In this document: positions 3,352-11,554 of the stretch, one piece after another
Position numbering within the stretch: the first letter of the stretch is position 1
Layout of the letters: each line of letters begins with the position of its first letter
From: Woeseiaceae bacterium
GTDB lineage: Bacteria > Pseudomonadota > Gammaproteobacteria > Steroidobacterales > Woeseiaceae
DNA length: 31,527 nt
Direction: 5' to 3'
Assembly: GCA_035466635.1 (NCBI GenBank)
Contig: DATIUU010000131.1
Span: 1-31,527, forward strand
Made by a program: the position numbers and the translations under genes
Notes under the pieces: generated by a model
The model's input: only the letters and a program-made list of their open reading frames with translations
Databases searched by the model: none
What the model was told of the DNA's origin: nothing

Positions 3352-4443
3352 TCAGCCCGCGTAGTTATTGCCGGAATCATTGCTCGCAAGGACTTTGCTG
3401 CCGTCGCGCAGGCTCGCCTGGCCGGTAACGACGACTTCTTCGTCCATAGCGAGGCCGTCGACGACTTCCACGAGTTTGCCGGATTCGATGCCTACCTGGA
3501 TGACCCGGCGGGCAACGGCACCGTCGGCGACGACGTACACGGAGGTCTGGTCGTCTTCCTCGACGATCGCGGTGCGCGGAATCACCAGTGCGTCGGCATG
3601 CCGGTCGTAGGCAATCGAGAAGCGGGCGAACATGCCGGGCGCGAGTTCGCCGGAGCGGTTGTCGATGAACGCGGTGGCGCGGAACGTGCCGTTACGCACG
3701 TCGATGGTCGGGCTGATCCGCGCGATGGTCGCCGAGTAAGTGGCCTCCGGCATCGCGTCCACCTTCAGGGTTGCCGCTTGCCCGGCCGAGAACTTGCCGA
3801 GTTCGCCCTGCGGTATCTGCAGGTAGGCAAGCAGCTCGCTGGTGTCGGTGATGCGGAAAGCCTCGTCGGCAGGGTCGATGCTCTGCCCGAGCTTGACGTA
3901 CCGTGAAGAAATCACGCCATCGATCGGCGCGCGGATCTTCGAGTACTCGAAATTCAGCCGAGCCAGGTTATAGGTGGCCTCGAGTGCTTCCAGGTCGTAT
4001 TTCAGGCCCTCGAACATCGCTTCACTCACCAGGCCGCGTGCAGCCAGGTCGGTGTAGCGTTCGTACTCGCCCCGGGCCTGTTCGAGGTTCGCCCTTGCCG
4101 ACAACATCTCGAGCCGCAGGCGCTCGCCGTCGAGTTCGGCGAGTACCTGTCCCGCCACGACCCGATCGCCTTCCTCGACCAGCAGCCTCACGACCTCGCC
4201 ACCGACTTTTGCCACGACGGGCGCGTCGGCATCCGAAGCGATCGTGGTCGTCGCCTCGTAGGTTGCGACGATATCGATACGCGTCGGCATGGCCGTCTCC
4301 ACCGGGATCGGGGTTGCCGCCCGGGTCTCACTTTCCGGGGCGACGCTGGCTTCGCCCACGCCGCAGCCGGACGCCAGGGCGACCGTGAGTGAGATGATGA
4401 GCGTGGTGACAGTGACGTGTTTGAGGTTCATCTTGGCGGTCAT
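3352..4443 (-). CDS. RND membrane fusion protein, lipoprotein
   Basis: KVGGEVVRLLVEEGDRV and IRAPIDGVIS motifs; lipobox LASGC. ATG 4431 is an alternative start. Confidence 0.93.
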   Translation of the reverse strand: MTAKMNLKHVTVTTLIISLTVALASGCGVGEASVAPESETRAATPIPVETAMPTRIDIVATYEATTTIASDADAPVVAKVGGEVVRLLVEEGDRVVAGQVLAELDGERLRLEMLSARANLEQARGEYERYTDLAARGLVSEAMFEGLKYDLEALEATYNLARLNFEYSKIRAPIDGVISSRYVKLGQSIDPADEAFRITDTSELLAYLQIPQGELGKFSAGQAATLKVDAMPEATYSATIARISPTIDVRNGTFRATAFIDNRSGELAPGMFARFSIAYDRHADALVIPRTAIVEEDDQTSVYVVADGAVARRVIQVGIESGKLVEVVDGLAMDEEVVVTGQASLRDGSKVLASNDSGNNYAG

Positions 4444-4455
4444 CTTTCGAGTTAC

Positions 4456-4496
4456 AGTGTTATAGTGAAGTATAACACTAGCTTAGTATAACGCAA
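4456..4496 (-). promoter_or_regulatory. Sigma70-type promoter of the MFP-MFP-RND operon with an overlapping palindromic operator
   Basis: Minus strand: TTGCGT (4496-4491), 16 nt, TGt-TATACT (4474-4469). Perfect inverted repeat AGTGTTATA-N6-TATAACACT at 4456-4479. Confidence 0.7.
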
Positions 4497-4709
4497 CACC
4501 TTGTGTCGATTTTTTTGCCCAGCGTGATTCTTTAAAAACAGACACTTACAGTGTCATGCCCGGTGCCTGCCGCTGGCCCCGGCCCTTGCCGACGGAGAAT
4601 CAGACCGCTGCCGCCAGCCGGAGTTCGGGCCGCGCGCACGGCGACGGAATCCGGAACCTGCCACTTAGATGCCGGCAAGGCGGATTTGGATGCAGGCCCG
4701 GATGCATTG

Positions 4710-7700
4710 CTACGGGGTGGCCGTGGTGGCCGACGAACCGTCGCCGCGGCGCTCGCGGCGCGCGGCGATGCGCTCTGACACGTTGGCCTGGATCATGAGC
4801 AGGCTGGGCGTCAGGAGCAGCGTGAGGATCGTGGCGAAAGCGAGGCCCCCGGCGACCGACGACGCGAGCTGTGTCCACCACTGGGAACTCGGTGCGCCCA
4901 CCGAGATGTCGCGTTCGATCAGGTTGATGTTGACACCCAGCACCATCGGCATGAGGCCGATGATCGTCGTAACCGTGGTGAGCAACACTGGCCGCAGGCG
5001 GATCGCGCAGGTACGTAATACGGCATCGTAGGCATCGAGGCCCCGGCTGCGAAGCACGTTGTAGGTATCGATGAACACGATGTTGTTGTTTACGACGATA
5101 CCCGCGAGGGTGATGACGCCGACGCTGGACATGATGACGCCGAAAGGCTTGTCCATGACGAGATGACCGAGGAGCACGCCGCCTGTCGAGAACAGCACCG
5201 CGGTGAGAATCAGGCCGGCCTGGTAAATGCTGTTGAACTGCGTCACCAGGATGATCGCCATGATCGCGAGCGCCATCAGCATCGCCCGCTCCAGGAACGC
5301 CATGTCCTCTTCCTGGTCTTCCGTACCGCCACGGAACGCGGCGCTGACGCGTGGATCGAGTGCGAGGGTGGGCATCATCTCGCGGAGATCCGCGACCACG
5401 TCGGATACGAGGTAGTCGCTGTCGACATCGGCATCGATACTGATCGTGCGCTCCAGGTCGATGCGCGTGATCGTGCTGACTTTCTGTGCCGGTTTTCTTT
5501 CGACGAACGTGCTGATGGGCACCTGCCCGCCGTCCGTCGGGATGCGCAGCCCGTCGATCTGGGAGAGACTGCGGTACTGTTCCGGGTAGCGGACGCGGAT
5601 GTCGATCTCGTCGTCGCTGTCGTCGGGCCGGTATTCGCCGATCTTGATGCCGTTGGTCACGAGCTGGACCATCGCGCCGACGAGCGAGATATCGGCCCCG
5701 AAGCGAGCCGCCTCGGCGCGGTCGACGTCGATCTGCCATTCGATACCGGGCAGGGGACGGCTGTCCTCGATATTGATGACGGCCGGGTGTTCCTCCATGA
5801 CCGCGCGGATTTCGGCCACGGCGTCGTCCAGCAACTCGGGGAAGCGCGACGCTACCTCGATGTGGATCGGCTTGCCAATGGGCGGACCTGGATCAGGCTT
5901 GCGTGTTTCAATCGTAATGCCGACGAGATCGGCCGTGTTGCGACGGATGTCGGCCAGGATCTCATCGGCTTTGCGCCGCTCGTCCCAGTCCACGTAGTTC
6001 AGTGTGAGCGAGCCGATATGGTCGGACGCGGCATCGTCGCCGCCGGCGCCGACCTTTGCATACAGGTGTTCGATCTCGGCCATGCCGAGGACACGGTTTT
6101 CGACCTGGCGCACGAGTTGGTCCATCTCGTCGATCGAGAGATCGCCGCGCGCACGGATATCGACCATGCCGAAAGGCATCTCGACCTCCGGGAAGTACTC
6201 GACGCCGCGGCCCAATGCGAAGAAGGCGACGTACACGGCGAGCAACAAGCCGGTGACCCCCGCGACGCTGCGCCACGGCCGCCTCAGGGACCGGCGCAGC
6301 AGCCTGATGTAGCTGCCCGTGAACCCGGTGACGCTGTTCAGGTCGCCGGTCTCGGCCGCGGCGAGATTGCGCTTCATCTCGGCGGTCGTGGCGCCGGTCT
6401 TGCCGAATACCGAGCCGAGCGTGGGCACGAATATCAGCGCCATGATCAGCGATGCCGAGAGGACCGCGATGAGCGTGATCGGCAGGTACTTCATGAACTC
6501 GCCGGAGGTACCCGGCCAGAGGGCCAGCGGCACGAATGCGGCGAGCGTCGTGCAGGTCGATGCGATGATGGGCCAGGACATGCGGATGGCAGCGCGCGAG
6601 TACGCGTCGAAACGGCTCTCGCCCTCGGCCATGCGCCGGTCGGCCATCTCGGTCACGACGATAGCGCCGTCGACGAGCATGCCCACGGCCATGATCAGCG
6701 CGAACAGCACCATCATGTTGATCGTGACGCCGAAGGAACCAATGAGCAGTATGCCCATCAGGAACGAGCCGGGGATCGCGACGCCGACGAGCAGCGCGGT
6801 GCGAATACCGAGAATGCCGATGATGACGATGAAGACGAGCAGCACGGCCGCAAGCACGCTGTTCTGCAGCTCGGTCAGCATGTCCTGCACGTCTTTCGAC
6901 TTGTCACGCGACGCGATGACCTCGATTTCGGCCGGCCAGTAAGCCTGCTCTTCGGCCACGAGTGCCTTGATCTCGTCGATGGTCTCGATGACGTTGGCGC
7001 GCGCACGCTGCACGACCTCGATGGCAAGCGCCGGCTTGCCGTTGAGGCGGGCGTAGCTCTCGGCATCCTTGTAGGTCCTGCGGACCTCGGCGATATCCCG
7101 GAAGTGGACGATGCGATCGCCCACCGCTTTGATGGGCATGCCGAGCACGTCGTCGGGGCTTTCGAACACGCCCGGGACCTTGACGGGGAAGCGTCCTTCC
7201 TCCGACTGCAGTGCGCCGGCTGCCACGAGCCGGTTGTTGAGCCTGACGAAGTTGATGATCTGCGCCTGGTCGAGGCCGTAGCTCTCCATCGCCAGCGGGT
7301 CCACGATGACTTCCATTAACTCTTCGCGGACGCCGACCAGGTTCACCTCGAGGACGCCAGCGAGACCCTCGATCTCCTCCTTGAGGTCCTTGGCAATGGT
7401 AATGAGCGTCCGCTCCGGCACGTCACCGGCGAGGTTGAGGACCAGCATCGGGTCGAAGCGCGACATCTTCACCTCGTTGACGGTCGGTTCGTCGGTCTCG
7501 CCGGGCAGCTTGGCTTTCGCCATGTCGACCTTTTCGCGGACGTCCGCCAGTGCCTTGTCCGTGTCGATGCCCGCGTCGAACTCGATGAGTACGTTGGCGC
7601 CGCCTTCGTAAGCGTTGGCGGTCATCTCCTTGATGCCTTCGATGGCGCGGAGTTCCTGCTCCATGGGCCGGACCAGCAGGCGCTCGCCGTCTTCCGGCGA

Positions 7701-7862
7701 AATACCGTCATGCGTAACGTGGACATAGATCATCGGGATCTCGATGTCCGGTTCCGCCTCCTTGGGTATCGTCGTGTAGGCGATTACGCCGGCGACCAGG
7801 ACGACCGCCAGTGACAGCAACACGGTTCGCGACCGCGCCATTGCGGTCTCGATGATCTGCAT
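4710..7862 (-). CDS. RND efflux permease (AcrB/AcrD/AcrF family), 1050 aa
   Basis: Full-length size and 12-TM layout; TM4 GMLVDGAIVVTE; TM11 RLRPVLLTTVTT. Confidence 0.96.
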   Translation of the reverse strand: MQIIETAMARSRTVLLSLAVVLVAGVIAYTTIPKEAEPDIEIPMIYVHVTHDGISPEDGERLLVRPMEQELRAIEGIKEMTANAYEGGANVLIEFDAGIDTDKALADVREKVDMAKAKLPGETDEPTVNEVKMSRFDPMLVLNLAGDVPERTLITIAKDLKEEIEGLAGVLEVNLVGVREELMEVIVDPLAMESYGLDQAQIINFVRLNNRLVAAGALQSEEGRFPVKVPGVFESPDDVLGMPIKAVGDRIVHFRDIAEVRRTYKDAESYARLNGKPALAIEVVQRARANVIETIDEIKALVAEEQAYWPAEIEVIASRDKSKDVQDMLTELQNSVLAAVLLVFIVIIGILGIRTALLVGVAIPGSFLMGILLIGSFGVTINMMVLFALIMAVGMLVDGAIVVTEMADRRMAEGESRFDAYSRAAIRMSWPIIASTCTTLAAFVPLALWPGTSGEFMKYLPITLIAVLSASLIMALIFVPTLGSVFGKTGATTAEMKRNLAAAETGDLNSVTGFTGSYIRLLRRSLRRPWRSVAGVTGLLLAVYVAFFALGRGVEYFPEVEMPFGMVDIRARGDLSIDEMDQLVRQVENRVLGMAEIEHLYAKVGAGGDDAASDHIGSLTLNYVDWDERRKADEILADIRRNTADLVGITIETRKPDPGPPIGKPIHIEVASRFPELLDDAVAEIRAVMEEHPAVINIEDSRPLPGIEWQIDVDRAEAARFGADISLVGAMVQLVTNGIKIGEYRPDDSDDEIDIRVRYPEQYRSLSQIDGLRIPTDGGQVPISTFVERKPAQKVSTITRIDLERTISIDADVDSDYLVSDVVADLREMMPTLALDPRVSAAFRGGTEDQEEDMAFLERAMLMALAIMAIILVTQFNSIYQAGLILTAVLFSTGGVLLGHLVMDKPFGVIMSSVGVITLAGIVVNNNIVFIDTYNVLRSRGLDAYDAVLRTCAIRLRPVLLTTVTTIIGLMPMVLGVNINLIERDISVGAPSSQWWTQLASSVAGGLAFATILTLLLTPSLLMIQANVSERIAARRERRGDGSSATTATP

Positions 7863-7865
7863 CGG

Positions 7866-9002
7866 CTAGTCCTCGTCTTCCGCCTTGATCGCGACCGCGG
7901 TCTCGACGTCGCCCTCCGGAACCGCGTCCACCATTGTTCCGGGCACGACGAAGCCCTGGCCCACCGTGATGATGGTCGCAAGGTCCGGCAGGCCGGCAAT
8001 CCAGACGCCCTCGTTCGTGGACAATGCGACGTCGGCAACGACGAACTCGACCTGGCCTGCGTCGTTGATGATCTTCACGCCGATGTTGCCGGCGTCATCG
8101 AGCGTGAGCAGCGAGGGTGAAATCCGATGCGCCAGGACGCGTTCCGCGGGGACCTGCAGCTCGGCGGTGCCGCCCGCGCGCAGGTTGCCGTTGCTGTTGT
8201 CCACCTCCAGCTCCACGGTGAACGTTCTCGTCGCCTCGTCGGCGACGGGCGCGACGTAGCGAATGGTGCCGTGGACGGTCTCGCCGGTGGCGAGCCGCGC
8301 CTGCGCCTTTTGCCCGGTTTCGACGTAGCCGGCATCGAACTCCGAAACGTTGGCTGTCACGATGATCCTGCGGTTGTCCACGAAGCGGGCAATCGGGTCG
8401 CCCGCCTTGACGAAGTCGCCCACCTCGACGTGGCGTTCCTGCAACGCACCGGCGAACGGCGCGCGAATGGTCATGTACTCGAGGTCGAGCTGGGCTCGCT
8501 TGAGTTCCGTTTTCGCGGCCTCGAGCTGCGCGATCGCTTCCTGCAGCTGTGCCTCGGACACGTAGCTCTCGCCCTTCAGCTTCAGGCGCCCCTGGTATTC
8601 CACTTCGCGCTGCCGGACGGTGGCCTCCGCCTGTGCGAGCCGGGCTTTGCGGTCGCGCTCGTCCAGCCGGACGATGACGGCATTTCGGTCGACGTTCGTG
8701 CCGCGATCGACGCCCACATACTCGATGCGGCCGTCGGTTTCCGCCGCGAGATCGACGACGCGCGCCGGCGCGGTCTCGCCGTTGACGACGATGGTGCGCA
8801 TGATCGCCTCGGCGGACTGGGTGCGCACGCGGACGCTCGACCGCGAAGGCGCCGCGGCACTGGTAATCACGCTGGCCGGTGCCTGGCCTTCGTCCGGCGC
8901 ATCGCTTCCGAGCTGGCCGGAGGCCAGCCACACGCCGACCAGCACGACGATGCCGGCGGATATCAGCCAGGAGCGAAACTGCTTCAGATTGCTAAAATTC
9001 AT
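7866..9002 (-). CDS. RND membrane fusion protein with N-terminal TM anchor
   Basis: IRAPFAGALQERHVEVGDFV and GTIRYVAPVAD motifs. Start moved to ATG 9002 (MNFSNLKQFRSWLISAGIVVLVGVWLASG) because the longer ORF overlaps padR. Confidence 0.92.
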   Translation of the reverse strand: MNFSNLKQFRSWLISAGIVVLVGVWLASGQLGSDAPDEGQAPASVITSAAAPSRSSVRVRTQSAEAIMRTIVVNGETAPARVVDLAAETDGRIEYVGVDRGTNVDRNAVIVRLDERDRKARLAQAEATVRQREVEYQGRLKLKGESYVSEAQLQEAIAQLEAAKTELKRAQLDLEYMTIRAPFAGALQERHVEVGDFVKAGDPIARFVDNRRIIVTANVSEFDAGYVETGQKAQARLATGETVHGTIRYVAPVADEATRTFTVELEVDNSNGNLRAGGTAELQVPAERVLAHRISPSLLTLDDAGNIGVKIINDAGQVEFVVADVALSTNEGVWIAGLPDLATIITVGQGFVVPGTMVDAVPEGDVETAVAIKAEDED

Positions 9003-9046
9003 GTTCTTGAGACCTTTTTCGTAATAGCTCGAGTATCGCGGCGGCA

Positions 9047-9595
9047 TCAGCCGACGGCGGACTCCCGGCCCCCATCCGCATCGTCGAAGAGCTTGTCCCG
9101 GTTCGCTTCGACGTATTCCCGCATGGTCTGCATCATCGTCTTGCCGAAGCCGAGGACGAAGCGTGCGCCGGGCGGCCAATCTTCCATGCAGTTTGTTTCG
9201 AATTCTTTAAAGAGCTCGAGGTAGCTCGTCATTTCCCTGACGCGATTGTCGAGCACGGTTTCGACCTGCTCGCGGGTCATCAGGTGGGCGAAACACATCG
9301 TGGCGAGAAACTCGGAGCGCACTTTGTGTGACGGGCGGGGATTCCCGAGCGCCGCGAGCAGGTGTTCGCGGCCCGCCGCCGTGATCTGGTAGACCTTGCG
9401 GTCGGGTTTGCCCTCCTGCGGAATGCAGCGGCACTCGACCAGGCCGTCGTTGGCCAGGGCATTGAGCGCGGGGTAGATCGAGCCGTAGCCGGCGGCGAAA
9501 AAATGGCCGAACGACGATTCGAATTCCTTCTTCAGGTCGTAGCCCGAGGCTTCACCATCGGTCAGCATGCCCAGGCAGACGGTTTTGACATCCAT
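9047..9595 (-). CDS. PadR-family transcriptional regulator (long, AphA-like C-terminal domain)
   Basis: SGYDLKK..GSIYPAL..L..GLV..RKVYQITAAG winged-HTH signature; first gene of the MFP-RND operon. Confidence 0.93.
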   Translation of the reverse strand: MDVKTVCLGMLTDGEASGYDLKKEFESSFGHFFAAGYGSIYPALNALANDGLVECRCIPQEGKPDRKVYQITAAGREHLLAALGNPRPSHKVRSEFLATMCFAHLMTREQVETVLDNRVREMTSYLELFKEFETNCMEDWPPGARFVLGFGKTMMQTMREYVEANRDKLFDDADGGRESAVG

Positions 9596-9741: not shown

Positions 9742-9766
9742 AAAACCCGGCCCGGGCGACCGGGTT
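9742..9766 (-). terminator. Probable intrinsic terminator after the FAD oxidoreductase
   Basis: Minus strand AACCCGG-N9-CCGGGTT with the T run extending to TTTT, about 30 nt after the stop at 9799. Confidence 0.55.
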
Positions 9767-9798
9767 CTGCCGGGATCCTGCGCGAGCAGCTACCGCAA

Positions 9799-11157
9799 TT
9801 ACTGGAAATACTGGGCCATGAAGGGCGTCAGGAAGCGGTCTTCCGGGTCGAGCTGCCGCCGGATCTTGCGAAAGAAGTCGAGCCGGGCGCCGTAGACCTG
9901 GCGGGCATAGTCCGCGCGCAGCGAGCGGGTCTGGCTGAACAGGGGCACGCCGGCCCAGTGCTCGGCAAAGTCGGCCAGGTCGATGACGAAGTCCTCCCAG
10001 CCGTTCGCCTGGGTCGACGACGTTTGCAGCGCGATCATCGGTTCGTCGAACGACGGCGAGAGCAGGGCGGAGCGGTCCTGGTACACGTAGTAGCCGACCG
10101 CCGGCATGTCGCAGCGGTAGCGCGACGTCTCGTAATTCTGCCTGCAGAACTGCCGGTAAGCCCGGGCGACCACCGAGAAGTCCGCGGCCGGAAAGCACCA
10201 GGTCGTGTAGAGCAGGTTGCGCGTGCGGCTGAAGTTACGGCCGGACGACCCGGCAAGGGTGTTGTTGCCCGTCGTCACGAAGCGGCCGTTGACGATGCCC
10301 TGCGTCGCCTCGCTGACCGTATCGATCACCTGGTATCGAACCGAATGCAGCGGCAACAGGCGGTTGAACGACTTGAACAGGCCGGGCAGCACGGTCGTCT
10401 CTCCCCAGTCCTTGATCTTCCACGGTGTCCTGTAGGTGTGGCCCGCGGAATCCGAGTAGCGCCGCAAGTCGAGGTAGACGCGGTCGCGGTAGGGCAGCAG
10501 GTAGAACTTGAACCCGACATCGTTGTTGGCCAGCGTATCGACGACGCGGCAGAAATCGTCGATCGGCAGCTTGCGATGGCTGACCGTGAAATTGGCGATC
10601 GGCTGCACCTTGAGCGTCGCCTCGGTGATGACGCCGAGCAGGCCATAGCTCGAGCGGACTGCACCCAGCAGGTTTTGCTGGCGGGCGTCCACTTTCATCA
10701 GTTTGCCCGCGGGTGTGACGAGCTTGGCACTCAGCACCCGGCTCGCGAGGCAGGCGGAGCGCTTGCCGATGCCCGGGCCCATGCTCGGCGCCGCGATCGC
10801 ACCGCCCAGCGTGCGTCCTGCGAGTTCGTGGGCGCCCACGAGTTCGAGGCCGTGCTCAGCCAGGGCCTCCGCGAGGCGGTAGATTCGCACGCCCGCCTGC
10901 GCGGTCACCGTGTTGTTGAAGGTATCGATGTTGAGGATGTTATCGAGGGGATTGACACTGATGACGGTGCCGGCCGGTGTCGTGTTGCAGCCCGTGGATG
11001 CACTGCGGGCGCCGGCAGGCCGGATCGGCGTGGGCGTGCGTGCGTCGGGATTCATCAGCCGCATCAGTTCGCGCGTGCTGTTGATCGTGTACTCGGTGCT
11101 CCCGCCGATCGCCGGGCGCACGAAGCGCCCGGTATTGCGAAGTCTCGCTGCAGTCAT
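9799..11157 (-). CDS. FAD-linked oxidoreductase, VAO/PCMH fold (ALO/GULO-like, divergent)
   Basis: FAD_binding_4 features: TVTAQAGV, TLGGAIA, SYGLLGVITEATL, and the C-terminal LDPEDRFL. Start placed at ATG 11157, which has GGAG 6 nt upstream; 11163 and 11196 are possible. Confidence 0.85.
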   Translation of the reverse strand: MTAARLRNTGRFVRPAIGGSTEYTINSTRELMRLMNPDARTPTPIRPAGARSASTGCNTTPAGTVISVNPLDNILNIDTFNNTVTAQAGVRIYRLAEALAEHGLELVGAHELAGRTLGGAIAAPSMGPGIGKRSACLASRVLSAKLVTPAGKLMKVDARQQNLLGAVRSSYGLLGVITEATLKVQPIANFTVSHRKLPIDDFCRVVDTLANNDVGFKFYLLPYRDRVYLDLRRYSDSAGHTYRTPWKIKDWGETTVLPGLFKSFNRLLPLHSVRYQVIDTVSEATQGIVNGRFVTTGNNTLAGSSGRNFSRTRNLLYTTWCFPAADFSVVARAYRQFCRQNYETSRYRCDMPAVGYYVYQDRSALLSPSFDEPMIALQTSSTQANGWEDFVIDLADFAEHWAGVPLFSQTRSLRADYARQVYGARLDFFRKIRRQLDPEDRFLTPFMAQYFQ

Positions 11158-11252
11158 AGTCATCTCCGGCACAGAAAAGTCGCAGGCCAAAGACACGGCG
11201 GGGGCGGATCGGGAAAGCCAGACGGCAAGATTCGTCGACGCGAATCGGGACT

Positions 11253-11340
11253 CGTGTTGGCGGCCCCGCTATCCTGGGTTCTACCCGTGGACCGGAAGCT
11301 TTGCGACCCTGGCTTTCGCCAAGTGTGCCTTTGTCAAACG
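11253..11340 (-). ncRNA. Cyclic di-GMP-I (GEMM) riboswitch aptamer
   Basis: Minus strand CGUUUGACAAAGGCACAC-UUGGC-GAAA-GCCAG-GGUCGCAAAGCUUCCGGUCCAC-GGGU-AGA-ACCC-AGGAUAGCGGGGCCGCCAACACG. It has P1, a P2 with GNRA tetraloop, the GCAAAG junction and P3. The ligand-contacting equivalents G20 (11329), A47 (11302) and C92 (11260) of the Vibrio Vc2 aptamer are present. Confidence 0.92.
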
Positions 11341-11347
11341 ATGAGCC

Positions 11348-11377
11348 ATCGTCGCACGCAGCCGGGAAAACTGTCAA
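11348..11377 (-). promoter_or_regulatory. Putative promoter of the riboswitch-oxidoreductase transcript
   Basis: TTGACA (11377-11372), 18 nt, GACGAT (11353-11348). The predicted +1 falls at about 11341, at the aptamer 5' end. Confidence 0.5.
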
Positions 11378-11522: not shown

Positions 11523-11554
11523 GGAGCCCGGAGTCGTTTCCGGGCTCCTGCTTT
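11523..11554 (+). terminator. Strong hairpin, terminator-like
   Basis: Perfect 10-bp stem GGAGCCCGGA-gtcgtt-TCCGGGCTCC, then TGC and TTT. Confidence 0.5.

Follow-up and report, generated by a model that had tools for sequence, protein, structure and literature searches.

The type examples of the c-di-GMP-I riboswitch are Vc2 and Vc1 of Vibrio cholerae, with Vc2 located upstream of tfoY and acting as an OFF switch, and Vc1 located upstream of gbpA and acting as an ON switch. As RNAs, such riboswitches are well understood; the same does not hold for many of the genes under their control. A variant of the class, c-di-GMP-I-GGC, was reportedly defined in a 2017 paper by Weinberg et al. With respect to the flavoenzymes that resemble the protein described below, GLDH and DprE1 bind FAD non-covalently, and the Lys residue of the HWxK motif is important in AldO and DprE1. 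The Woeseiaceae are a globally abundant clade in marine sediments, where they are among the most abundant bacterial groups.

Here, a 31,527-nucleotide stretch of DNA (the window) from a marine-sediment Woeseiaceae bacterium is described with respect to one such gene. We propose, with a probability of about two in three, that the locus forms a unit composed of a promoter, a canonical class-I c-di-GMP riboswitch acting as a translational OFF switch, one flavoenzyme gene, and a terminator, with the enzyme made at low c-di-GMP. The RNA is of a known kind; the flavoenzyme is a consistent target of this riboswitch, a role not found described in the literature searched.

Transcription unit and its conservation

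The original prediction had set out a single transcription unit containing a promoter, a GEMM-I aptamer, a FAD-fold open reading frame, and a terminator, and all four parts were found at the coordinates it gave (Table 1). The promoter consists of a −35 box (TTGACA, 11377-11372), an 18-nt spacer, the TG of an extended −10 element (11356-11355), and GACGAT (11353-11348). A simple consensus promoter/terminator scan of the window called neither this promoter nor the terminator, the latter having a short U-tract and a hairpin of unexceptional folding energy (z = −1.05), although both were accepted because they are conserved across orthologues. That is, the promoter blocks—TTGACA/TTGCR and TGCAAGGAT/TGCAACGAT/TGCGACGAT—keep a constant offset from the aptamer in the orthologues of the genus, with the spacer variable, and most of the close orthologues shown have a hairpin of other stem sequence followed by ATTTTCC at the terminator site. 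The start codon, an ATG at 11157, is consistent with the conserved N-termini of the orthologues.

Table 1. Features of the riboswitch–flavoenzyme unit, in positions of the window
Feature	Position	Strand	Basis or remarks
Sigma-70-type promoter	11348..11377	(-)	Sequence reading and conservation in orthologues
c-di-GMP-I (GEMM-I) aptamer	11255..11339	(-)	Rfam covariance models; P2 capped by GAAA
Aptamer core CAAAGGCAC (J1/2 and first P2 pairs)	11325..11333	(-)	Target of the anti-aptamer pairing
Spacer hairpin GAUUCG-N6-CGAAUC	11229..11246	(-)	Without U-tract
Second anti-aptamer element CUGGCUUUC	11213..11221	(-)	Complementary to GAAAGCCAG (11317-11309; P2 loop and 3′ strand)
Switch sequence GUGUCUUUGGC, 11 nt	11186..11196	(-)	Complementary to both aptamer core and SD region
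SD region GCCGGAGAU	11162..11170	(-)	GGAG at 11167-11164, 6 nt 5′ of the ATG
Coding sequence, 452 aa and stop	9799..11157	(-)	Open frame; PCMH/VAO-type FAD oxidoreductase with aldonolactone-oxidoreductase-like cap domain
Intrinsic-terminator-like hairpin	9742..9768	(-)	11 bp, 5-nt loop, UUUU ending the 3′ arm

The unit contains one gene. An operon with the downstream PadR-MFP-RND genes was rejected, since the flavoenzyme gene is followed by a terminator and separated from them by an AT-rich gap of 203 nt, and since there is a second promoter-like site; synteny with these genes is kept in only part of the genus. The claim that the flavoprotein gene stands alone was thus borne out: it ends in a terminator, and PadR, the gene downstream, has a promoter-like site to itself.

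Orthologues of the flavoenzyme are present in 32 of the 36 genomes of the genus, and the aptamer was found at 17 of 19 genus loci, with the remaining two lying at contig ends. When the regions upstream of homologues were checked, the predicted pairing of gene and riboswitch proved to be strongly conserved: of 80 Woeseiaceae species genomes, 77 have the aptamer in front of the orthologue, the exceptions being one locus at a contig end and two truly without an aptamer. In the order at large, the aptamer also stands before homologues with as little as approximately 30–40% identity, in no fewer than 11 families. Among homologues in other families and genera, it accompanies five of five and 20 of 20 in the higher-scoring groups, and four of ten in the lowest-scoring group. 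The enzyme clade was found in this order only, with matches in two of 400 sampled Gammaproteobacteria genomes, both of the window's own genus. Between two and six GEMM-I elements occur per genome, and the orphan flavoenzyme gene is among their targets in all five genomes checked. The original prediction presented this pairing as apparently undescribed; a full-text literature search—on GEMM or c-di-GMP riboswitches together with FAD or gulonolactone oxidoreductases, and on c-di-GMP in Woeseiaceae—likewise did not find it.

Aptamer class and ligand

The GEMM-I aptamer, predicted at 11253-11340, was recovered by cmscan as the single Rfam match in the 31.5-kb window (11255-11338 on the (-) strand; E = 1e-12). 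The label reported by cmscan was RF03167 (c-di-GMP-I-GGC) at 62.6 bits, over the gathering score of 59, and several orthologous aptamers are likewise labelled RF03167, as would be expected if the RNA belonged to that orphan variant class and bound a ligand other than c-di-GMP. The canonical RF01051 (c-di-GMP-I) model, however, gives the higher bit score (64.0 bits, with the gathering score at 35 and an E value of 2.5e-12 for the whole genome), and the label switches among orthologues of one gene, which fits model competition rather than a change of specificity. Furthermore, the two models have one conserved core difference, CGC-G-AA in RF03167 versus CGC-A-AA in RF01051, and this base is A in the aptamer and in all 94 of its relatives; the cmscan alignment to RF03167 shows a mismatch here, the window having CGCAAA against the CGCGAA of the model. 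We infer that GGC in the name of the variant denotes positions 20, 47, and 92 and, from the two Rfam consensus lines, that the position-47 G is what defines RF03167. Thus, the window aptamer is similar to RF03167 in overall fold and scores just over its gathering threshold, but is not a member as to the altered binding pocket. The RF03167 label is an artefact of clan competition, and a ligand other than c-di-GMP is highly improbable.

The equivalents of the ligand-contact bases, mapped to Vc2 numbering through the Vc2 sequence and the Rfam consensus lines, are G20 = 11329, A47 = 11302, and C92 = 11260, all canonical. A47 and C92 are invariant in 94 distinct related aptamers, and G20 occurs in 93 of them (one was not assessed). 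The G at 11329 also sets the aptamer apart from the c-AMP-GMP (GEMM-Ib) type, which has A at position 20. Because the contact bases are canonical both here and in the related aptamers, the ligand is almost certainly c-di-GMP. The bacterium has its own enzymes for c-di-GMP metabolism, the 68%-complete genome encoding at least seven GGDEF and at least five EAL domains.

As in RF01051 members, the RNA is a three-helix aptamer in an mRNA 5′ leader, with canonical G20, A47, and C92, in a gammaproteobacterium with GGDEF and EAL genes. Of the predicted pairs, 11 of 20 hold despite changes on both sides among 26 related aptamers. The GAAA tetraloop on P2 is found in 93 of the 94 distinct relatives, and the P3 receptor strands read UCUAAG/UCUACG...CUAGGA in relatives and UCCACG...CCAGGA in the window. 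The lower score of the window aptamer fits this slightly diverged P3 tetraloop-receptor region, by which it differs from RF01051. Two further differences from that family are the target, an orphan FAD oxidoreductase family, and the use of three interchangeable expression-platform designs for one orthologous gene.

Leader pairings and the direction of control

The proposed switch is centred on GUGUCUUUGGC, which occurs in 41 of 76 classified leaders amid variable surrounding leader sequence and has two alternative pairing partners, the aptamer core and the SD region. The mean duplex energies in 51 leaders are −13.4 kcal/mol with the core and −14.0 kcal/mol with the SD region, versus approximately −6 kcal/mol for shuffled sequences (−6.0 for the core shuffle). 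When the part 3′ of the aptamer was folded alone, at least three of the four SD bases paired with the switch sequence in 43 of the 51 leaders. The window copy is among the eight exceptions, its downstream part pairing the SD with a CCC at 11210-11212 instead of the switch; its switch–SD duplex has an energy of −12.8 kcal/mol and contains three G-U pairs. In the unconstrained minimum-free-energy (MFE) fold of the window leader, the aptamer core pairs with 11196-11188, forming an anti-aptamer helix. The pairing of the second element, CUGGCUUUC, with GAAAGCCAG also forms in the MFE fold; this element is found in the closest relatives only, and is identical in the closest orthologue. The folding energy of the whole leader is unexceptional (z = −0.05), so that energy alone is no evidence, and the case rests on the conserved alternative pairings.

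From these pairings, translational OFF logic is predicted. At low c-di-GMP, the core CAAAGGCAC of the apo aptamer would be accessible and would pair with GUGUCUUUGGC, leaving the GGAG of the SD free and allowing the enzyme to be made. At high c-di-GMP, the ligand would lock the core into the aptamer, and the released GUGUCUUUGGC would pair with GCCGGAGAU, thereby occluding the SD. In the ligand-free MFE folds, 35 of the 51 leaders are already in the SD-sequestered state, and thus the switch would have to act kinetically during transcription. A different arrangement is seen in 31 short-leader orthologues, in which the aptamer is 3–26 nt from the start codon: in some, the GGAG follows C92-C93 immediately, within the 3′ strand of P1; in the others, the 3′ strands of P3/P1 contain both the GGAG and the AUG. 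With the SD or AUG inside the 3′ strands of the aptamer, OFF control alone is permitted.

These short-leader orthologues weigh against both of the other readings of the leader. One is a translational ON switch, in which the P3 5′ strand (UUCCGG, 11297-11292) would, without ligand, pair with the SD-containing CCGGAG, and c-di-GMP would draw P3 into the aptamer and free the SD. The complementarity between the P3 5′ strand and the SD region is real, averaging −10.1 kcal/mol in 50 leaders and reaching −15 to −17 kcal/mol in a few, and CUUCCGG is commoner in long-leader aptamers than in short-leader ones, in which CCACCGG dominates. However, this pairing drops to −6 to −8 kcal/mol in orthologues with CCACCGG or CUACCGG, and it gives no account of the far better conserved GUGUCUUUGGC, which pairs with both core and SD. 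It is unlikely that orthologues of a single gene in the same genus would be controlled in opposite directions, and the ON switch itself is likewise unlikely. The other reading places primary control at transcription, through intrinsic or Rho-dependent premature termination in the leader rather than SD occlusion. The 97-nt leader does contain hairpins, and since an mRNA whose translation is blocked is often exposed to Rho, a transcriptional component could follow. No U-tract follows any leader hairpin, though—the spacer hairpin was ruled out as a terminator for this reason, and orthologues have a hairpin of other sequence in its place—and the 3–26-nt gap of the short-leader orthologues leaves no room for a terminator. 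As the conserved complementarity is, moreover, centred on the SD, control primarily at the level of transcription is considered still harder to sustain than an ON switch. Translational OFF control by c-di-GMP thus remains the preferred reading, and the suggestion that the protein is a biofilm factor finds no support, since, judging from the expression platforms, high c-di-GMP should repress the gene, so that the protein would be made in the low-c-di-GMP state.

The flavoenzyme family

The 452-residue protein contains a Pfam FAD_binding_4 domain (PF01565; E = 2e-16, 60.4 bits versus a gathering score of 26.4; residues 27-156, profile positions 9-138 of 139) and an ALO C-terminal domain (PF04030; E = 3.5e-8, 33.9 bits versus 23.1; residues 180-448), the same two Pfam domains as in the aldonolactone oxidoreductases. 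Its AF2 model (pLDDT 85.5, pTM 0.85), searched with Foldseek, gave full-length matches with TM scores of 0.67–0.83, including GLDH 8qnb (0.76) and the GulDH Rv1771 (0.79/0.83); the DprE1 match reached only approximately 0.67. Rv1771 is the L-gulono-1,4-lactone dehydrogenase of M. tuberculosis, and 8qnb and 8qnr are L-galactono-1,4-lactone dehydrogenase. The two-domain PCMH/VAO fold is common, over the full length, to the orphan enzyme, the aldonolactone oxidoreductases (GLDH 8qnb/8qnr, Rv1771, GULO, and ALO), alditol oxidase (2vfs and 8ot8), and DprE1 (4fdo), although the orphan enzyme is only 13–19% identical to them. A profile search against the PDB matched GLDH with E = 2.6e-28, in the FAD domain only. 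The enzyme thus belongs to the aldonolactone-oxidoreductase/alditol-oxidase/DprE1 branch of the VAO/PCMH superfamily.

Within this branch, it falls far below the cut-offs of the NCBIfam models TIGR01679 (114 versus 292 bits), TIGR01678 (71 versus 397), and TIGR01676 (58 versus 458) and of the DprE1 equivalog NF053785 (54 versus 500), and the matches obtained from the ESM Atlas were all unnamed FAD_binding_4 clusters. As every curated NCBIfam cut-off is so far away, activity and substrate are both predictions: the reaction is probably the oxidation of an alcohol group, secondary or primary, in a polyol or sugar-like substrate. By eye, no signal peptide is evident, and the enzyme is therefore probably cytoplasmic. 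The position equivalent to the "gatekeeper" Ala113 of GLDH is variable in the orphan family, and no inference as to oxidase versus dehydrogenase was drawn. In place of the Glu-x-Arg in the substrate-binding strand of AldO and GLDH, the protein appears by eye to have G-x-R; the profile alignment covers the FAD domain only.

The description of the protein as motif-degenerate holds in part. The His residue for covalent FAD attachment is absent, and the Lys of HWxK is missing, with AEHWAG aligning to the AEHWAK of GLDH; in the family, this Gly is invariant and the His variable. The FAD-binding motifs, by contrast, are retained, namely the blocks PxRxxG...T.C, RTxGGA, and SYGxLG. GLDH also lacks the covalent His, having Leu at the aligned position, and FAD binding is most likely non-covalent in the orphan enzyme as well.

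Whether the fold might be non-catalytic or repurposed, for instance as a binding or regulatory protein, as the original prediction suggested, turns on how these losses are read. An invariant Gly in place of the HWxK Lys and the missing covalent His could both signal lost chemistry, as could a cap domain too diverged for sequence alignment to any solved enzyme and the failure to reach any curated family cut-off. The covalent His is nevertheless dispensable for activity, as the Leu of GLDH indicates, and the FAD-binding domain is intact, matching 130 of 139 Pfam profile positions at 60 bits, with the GLDH profile match and the retained blocks in agreement. In addition, the family alignment has 37 invariant columns, almost all matches are without internal stops, and the cap-domain blocks STWCFP, YRCDxPxxG, and LSPSF are strongly conserved across 30–90% identity, a pattern that suggests a conserved active site of different specificity. 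A non-catalytic role is therefore unsupported, and we consider it improbable.

The family has invariant residues of its own, including Cys57 in an ST(D/G)CN block and the YRCD block. It is possible, although we hold this only tentatively and think it rather doubtful, that the flavoenzyme represents a family confined to this lineage whose active site has been rebuilt, with Gly in place of the HWxK Lys and with invariant Cys, Arg, and Asp residues of its own, and that its chemistry differs from those of all characterised aldonolactone oxidoreductases, alditol oxidases, and DprE1 enzymes. Its product or substrate would then belong specifically to the physiology of Steroidobacterales/Woeseiaceae at low c-di-GMP, in the dispersed or motile state. 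If so, the riboswitch would mark a new metabolic output of c-di-GMP signalling.

The understanding of riboswitches themselves is unchanged by this finding, although the locus family provides, as a natural series, three designs of expression platform on one gene. Because the orphan flavoenzyme is among only two to six GEMM-I targets per genome, and its riboswitch is kept across the order, it represents a clearly defined lead, amenable to experiment, towards an output of c-di-GMP signalling. Overall, the enzyme would be a conserved output of c-di-GMP signalling in the order, produced in the low-c-di-GMP state.

The riboswitch unit and its ligand

The promoter, GEMM-I aptamer, flavoenzyme gene and terminator form a real, monocistronic unit, since the gene that follows, a PadR regulator succeeded by an MFP-RND efflux pair, lies beyond a 203-nt gap and behind its own promoter-like site (TGGACT-16-TATAAT), and a divergent PLD-type, cardiolipin synthase-like gene is the next one upstream. 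All four parts had been named in the original prediction, and all four were recovered. The promoter was missed by a simple consensus scan; however, in orthologous loci the TTGACA/TTGCR and TGCAAGGAT/TGCAACGAT/TGCGACGAT blocks keep a constant distance to the aptamer, with a variable spacer. The terminator hairpin has an unremarkable folding energy (z = -1.05), and in most of the close orthologues shown a hairpin with another stem sequence, then ATTTTCC, occupies the same position.

Features of the riboswitch unit and other GEMM-I aptamers of the organism
Feature	Position	Strand	Details
Inverted repeat	11524-11549	both	GGAGCCCGG-N8-CCGGGCTCC; GC-rich, strong
Promoter	11377-11348	-	TTGACA (11377-11372), 18 nt, TG-C-GACGAT (11356-11348); read from sequence
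Aptamer	11255-11338	-	cmscan match
Aptamer core	11333-11325	-	CAAAGGCAC; J1/2 with G20 and first P2 pairs
Second anti-aptamer element	11221-11213	-	CUGGCUUUC; perfectly complementary to GAAAGCCAG (P2 loop and 3' strand, 11309-11317)
Switch sequence	11196-11186	-	GUGUCUUUGGC
SD region	11170-11162	-	GCCGGAGAY
Flavoenzyme CDS	11157-9799	-	open frame, 452 codons; Pfam matches
Arg-rich N-terminal peptide	11110-11157	-	residues 1-16
Terminator	9768-9742	-	11-bp hairpin; 3' arm ends in UUUU
GEMM-I aptamer L001	G000:C4:4335-4420	-	own genome; before Peptidase_M23 protein, 310 aa
GEMM-I aptamer L003	C333:1231-1314	-	own genome; before membrane protein, at least 409 aa
GEMM-I aptamer L004	C323:5166-5278	-	own genome; before protein with signal-peptide-like N-terminus, 165 aa

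With cmscan run at gathering thresholds, the aptamer is the sole match in the whole window, spanning the full model length (62.6 bits, E 1e-12), and was labelled c-di-GMP-I-GGC (RF03167), an orphan variant class. Separate scoring over the whole genome gave 64.0 bits for RF01051 (gathering 35) and 62.6 bits for RF03167 (gathering 59), indicating that the label is a clan tie-break. The conserved cores of the Rfam consensus lines differ at one place, GACGC-G-AAgCc in RF03167 versus GACGC-A-AAgCc in RF01051, which we take to be A47 in Vc2 numbering. A47 of Vc2 is stacked between both ligand guanines. The window carries A at this position (11302), where the RF03167 consensus has G, and A is found in all 94 distinct related aptamers; a GGC-variant sensor was rejected on this ground. 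A c-AMP-GMP sensor was likewise rejected, the base equivalent to G20 being G in the window (11329) and in 93 of the 94 relatives, with the remaining one not assessable. C92 (11260 in the window) is present in 94/94 and the P2 GAAA tetraloop in 93/94, and pairing is kept despite two-sided changes at 11 of 20 predicted pairs in 26 aligned aptamers. Furthermore, the organism's genome, 68% complete, encodes at least 7 GGDEF and at least 5 EAL domains. From these contact bases, we read the aptamer, a member of a thoroughly studied RNA class, as an ordinary c-di-GMP sensor, which upholds the earlier proposal of a stand-alone flavoprotein under c-di-GMP control.

The same genome contains three further GEMM-I aptamers. 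The membrane protein downstream of one has an N-terminal TM, a coiled-coil-like middle and C-terminal TMs, and the signal-peptide-like character of the 165-aa protein lies in its N-terminus; Pfam assigned neither of these two to a family.

Neighbouring genes give no clue to flavoenzyme function. The PadR, HlyD-type membrane-fusion protein, AcrB-type RND pump and second HlyD-type genes occupy 3352-9595 (minus strand); roughly half of the genus loci examined show synteny between the PadR-MFP part and the flavoenzyme gene, and the order PLD/riboswitch-gene/PadR-MFP-RND is kept in only part of the genus. The intergenic region that separates the riboswitch promoter from the start of the divergent PLD gene contains the inverted repeat.

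Conservation and loss of the aptamer

The named homologues of the flavoenzyme and all 80 best genome hits belong to Woeseiaceae or unclassified Gammaproteobacteria MAGs of sediment origin, and among 400 evenly sampled Gammaproteobacteria a match (E <= 1e-30) occurred in only 2 genomes, both of the window's own genus. Orthologues of 53-93% identity were found in 32 of 36 genomes of that genus. The aptamer recurs upstream of homologues: by Rfam, GEMM-I lies directly upstream in 17 of 19 genus loci, the other two starting at contig ends, and a covariance model trained on 26 of the related aptamers placed it upstream in 77/80 species genomes, a set partly overlapping the genus loci, so that the counts are not additive. 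The three misses comprise one contig-end locus and two genuine absences, established with filters off. All homologues of 38-44% identity from four other families carry it, as do 20/20 further high-scoring homologues from other genera or families of the order and 4/10 of the lowest-scoring group; homologues without it come from family f17 and from one genome each of families f5 and f14. Genomes hold 2-6 GEMM-I elements, and the flavoenzyme gene was among the targets in all five genomes checked. Within the literature searched, no paper was found linking a c-di-GMP riboswitch to this flavoenzyme family or to Woeseiaceae.

Locus L104 (Woeseiaceae MAG chromosome OZ245053.1, 1380-1500), one of the two genuine absences, is a natural aptamer-loss variant that keeps the conserved promoter (…GTGCAAGGAT) and SD/AUG, with the aptamer and most leader sequence missing. 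Its junction reads CGTTTG|CCAA, which suggests excision of the aptamer between a pair of TTTG words, one at the aptamer 5' end and one in the switch sequence. Another locus, L090, is likewise without an aptamer and has a rearranged upstream region. Three homologues of 29-34% identity from other families of the order (L036, L037 and L038) also have no riboswitch; in L036 and L038 the gene is flanked by a SnoaL-like gene on one side and a LysM or LysM/SLT lytic-transglycosylase-like gene on the other, and in L037 and L038 a YccF gene is downstream. This context may be ancestral, or else unrelated synteny.

Three expression-platform designs

One and the same gene is served by three expression-platform designs. 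Long leaders, comprising 41 of the 76 classified and including the window, share a near-invariant switch sequence amid otherwise variable sequence, complementary both to the aptamer core and to the SD region. Over 51 non-redundant leaders, for which duplex energies and folds were computed, the mean switch:core duplex was -13.4 kcal/mol (-6.0 with shuffled switch) and the mean switch:SD duplex -14.0 kcal/mol (-6.5 with shuffled switch). With only the post-aptamer segment folded, at least 3 of the 4 SD bases paired to the switch in 43/51 leaders. The anti-aptamer helix is present in the window's unconstrained MFE fold, and orthologue folds are split between this and the SD-sequestered state, matching the expectation for a balanced switch. 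The window itself has one of the weaker switch:SD duplexes, at -12.8 kcal/mol and with three G-U pairs, and in its downstream-only fold the SD pairs elsewhere than with the switch. The second anti-aptamer element was found only in the window and its closest relatives; the counterpart at locus L012, CCUGGUGA, copies that locus's own P2 5' strand.

The 31 short leaders are of two types, one (...CC-GGAGACGNNNAUG) with GGAG within the P1 3' strand, the other (...GCGGAGUUACCAAUAUG) with GGAG within the P3 3' strand and AUG immediately adjoining P1. P1 covaries with design, being 5' UUUG/3' CAAC in long and 5' UUCG/3' CGGA in short leaders. Whichever the design, an aptamer stabilised by its ligand would hide the SD, and repression of the flavoenzyme at high c-di-GMP is predicted from this arrangement, which gives no support to the "biofilm factor" of the original prediction. 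An ON switch, in which the P3 5' strand pairs with the SD, draws on a real complementarity (mean -10.1 kcal/mol) but leaves the switch element and the short leaders unexplained. For the predicted OFF switch, the SD-sequestered state is already seen in 35/51 full-length MFE folds with ligand absent, so the switch decision would need to be co-transcriptional.

The flavoenzyme

The predicted FAD-fold frame is present, and its FAD-binding domain is intact by Pfam FAD_binding_4 (2e-16, residues 27-156, 130/139 profile positions); ALO matches residues 180-448 (3.5e-8), and the family profile matches L-galactono-1,4-lactone dehydrogenase (GLDH) over residues 19-228 (2.6e-28). No curated NCBIfam model was approached (best TIGR01679, 114 bits versus a cut-off of 292). 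An AlphaFold2 model from a 33-sequence alignment (pLDDT 85.5, pTM 0.85) gave full-length fold matches at 13-19% identity to GLDH (8qnb, TM 0.76), M. tuberculosis L-gulono-1,4-lactone dehydrogenase (TM 0.79/0.83), GULO, ALO, alditol oxidase and DprE1 (TM about 0.67). The covalent-FAD His of GULO and AldO is replaced by Ser or Thr in the window family; the aligned residue in GLDH is Leu. Aligned to the C-terminal AEHWAK of GLDH, the window protein has AEHWAG, with the Gly invariant across the family and the His variable; the equivalent Lys is important for AldO and DprE1 catalysis. The family has 37 invariant columns, with its own blocks ST(D/G)CN, STWCFP and YRCDxPxxG, and stops are almost never present in matches from other genomes. 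We thus read the protein as a flavoenzyme that is active but has a changed substrate pocket, rather than a dead fold, and the earlier suggestion of a non-catalytic protein is not supported.

Preceding the FAD domain is an Arg-rich peptide (M-x-A-x-R-L/F-R-x-T-G-R-F), conserved in most Woeseiaceae orthologues; residues 1-17 of the model have low confidence. No Tat motif was recognised by eye in residues 1-16, and no hydrophobic N-terminal segment is visible in the window protein. What gives the finding its value is the enzyme, an orphan that is well conserved and forms a defined output of c-di-GMP signalling in a sediment lineage of high abundance.
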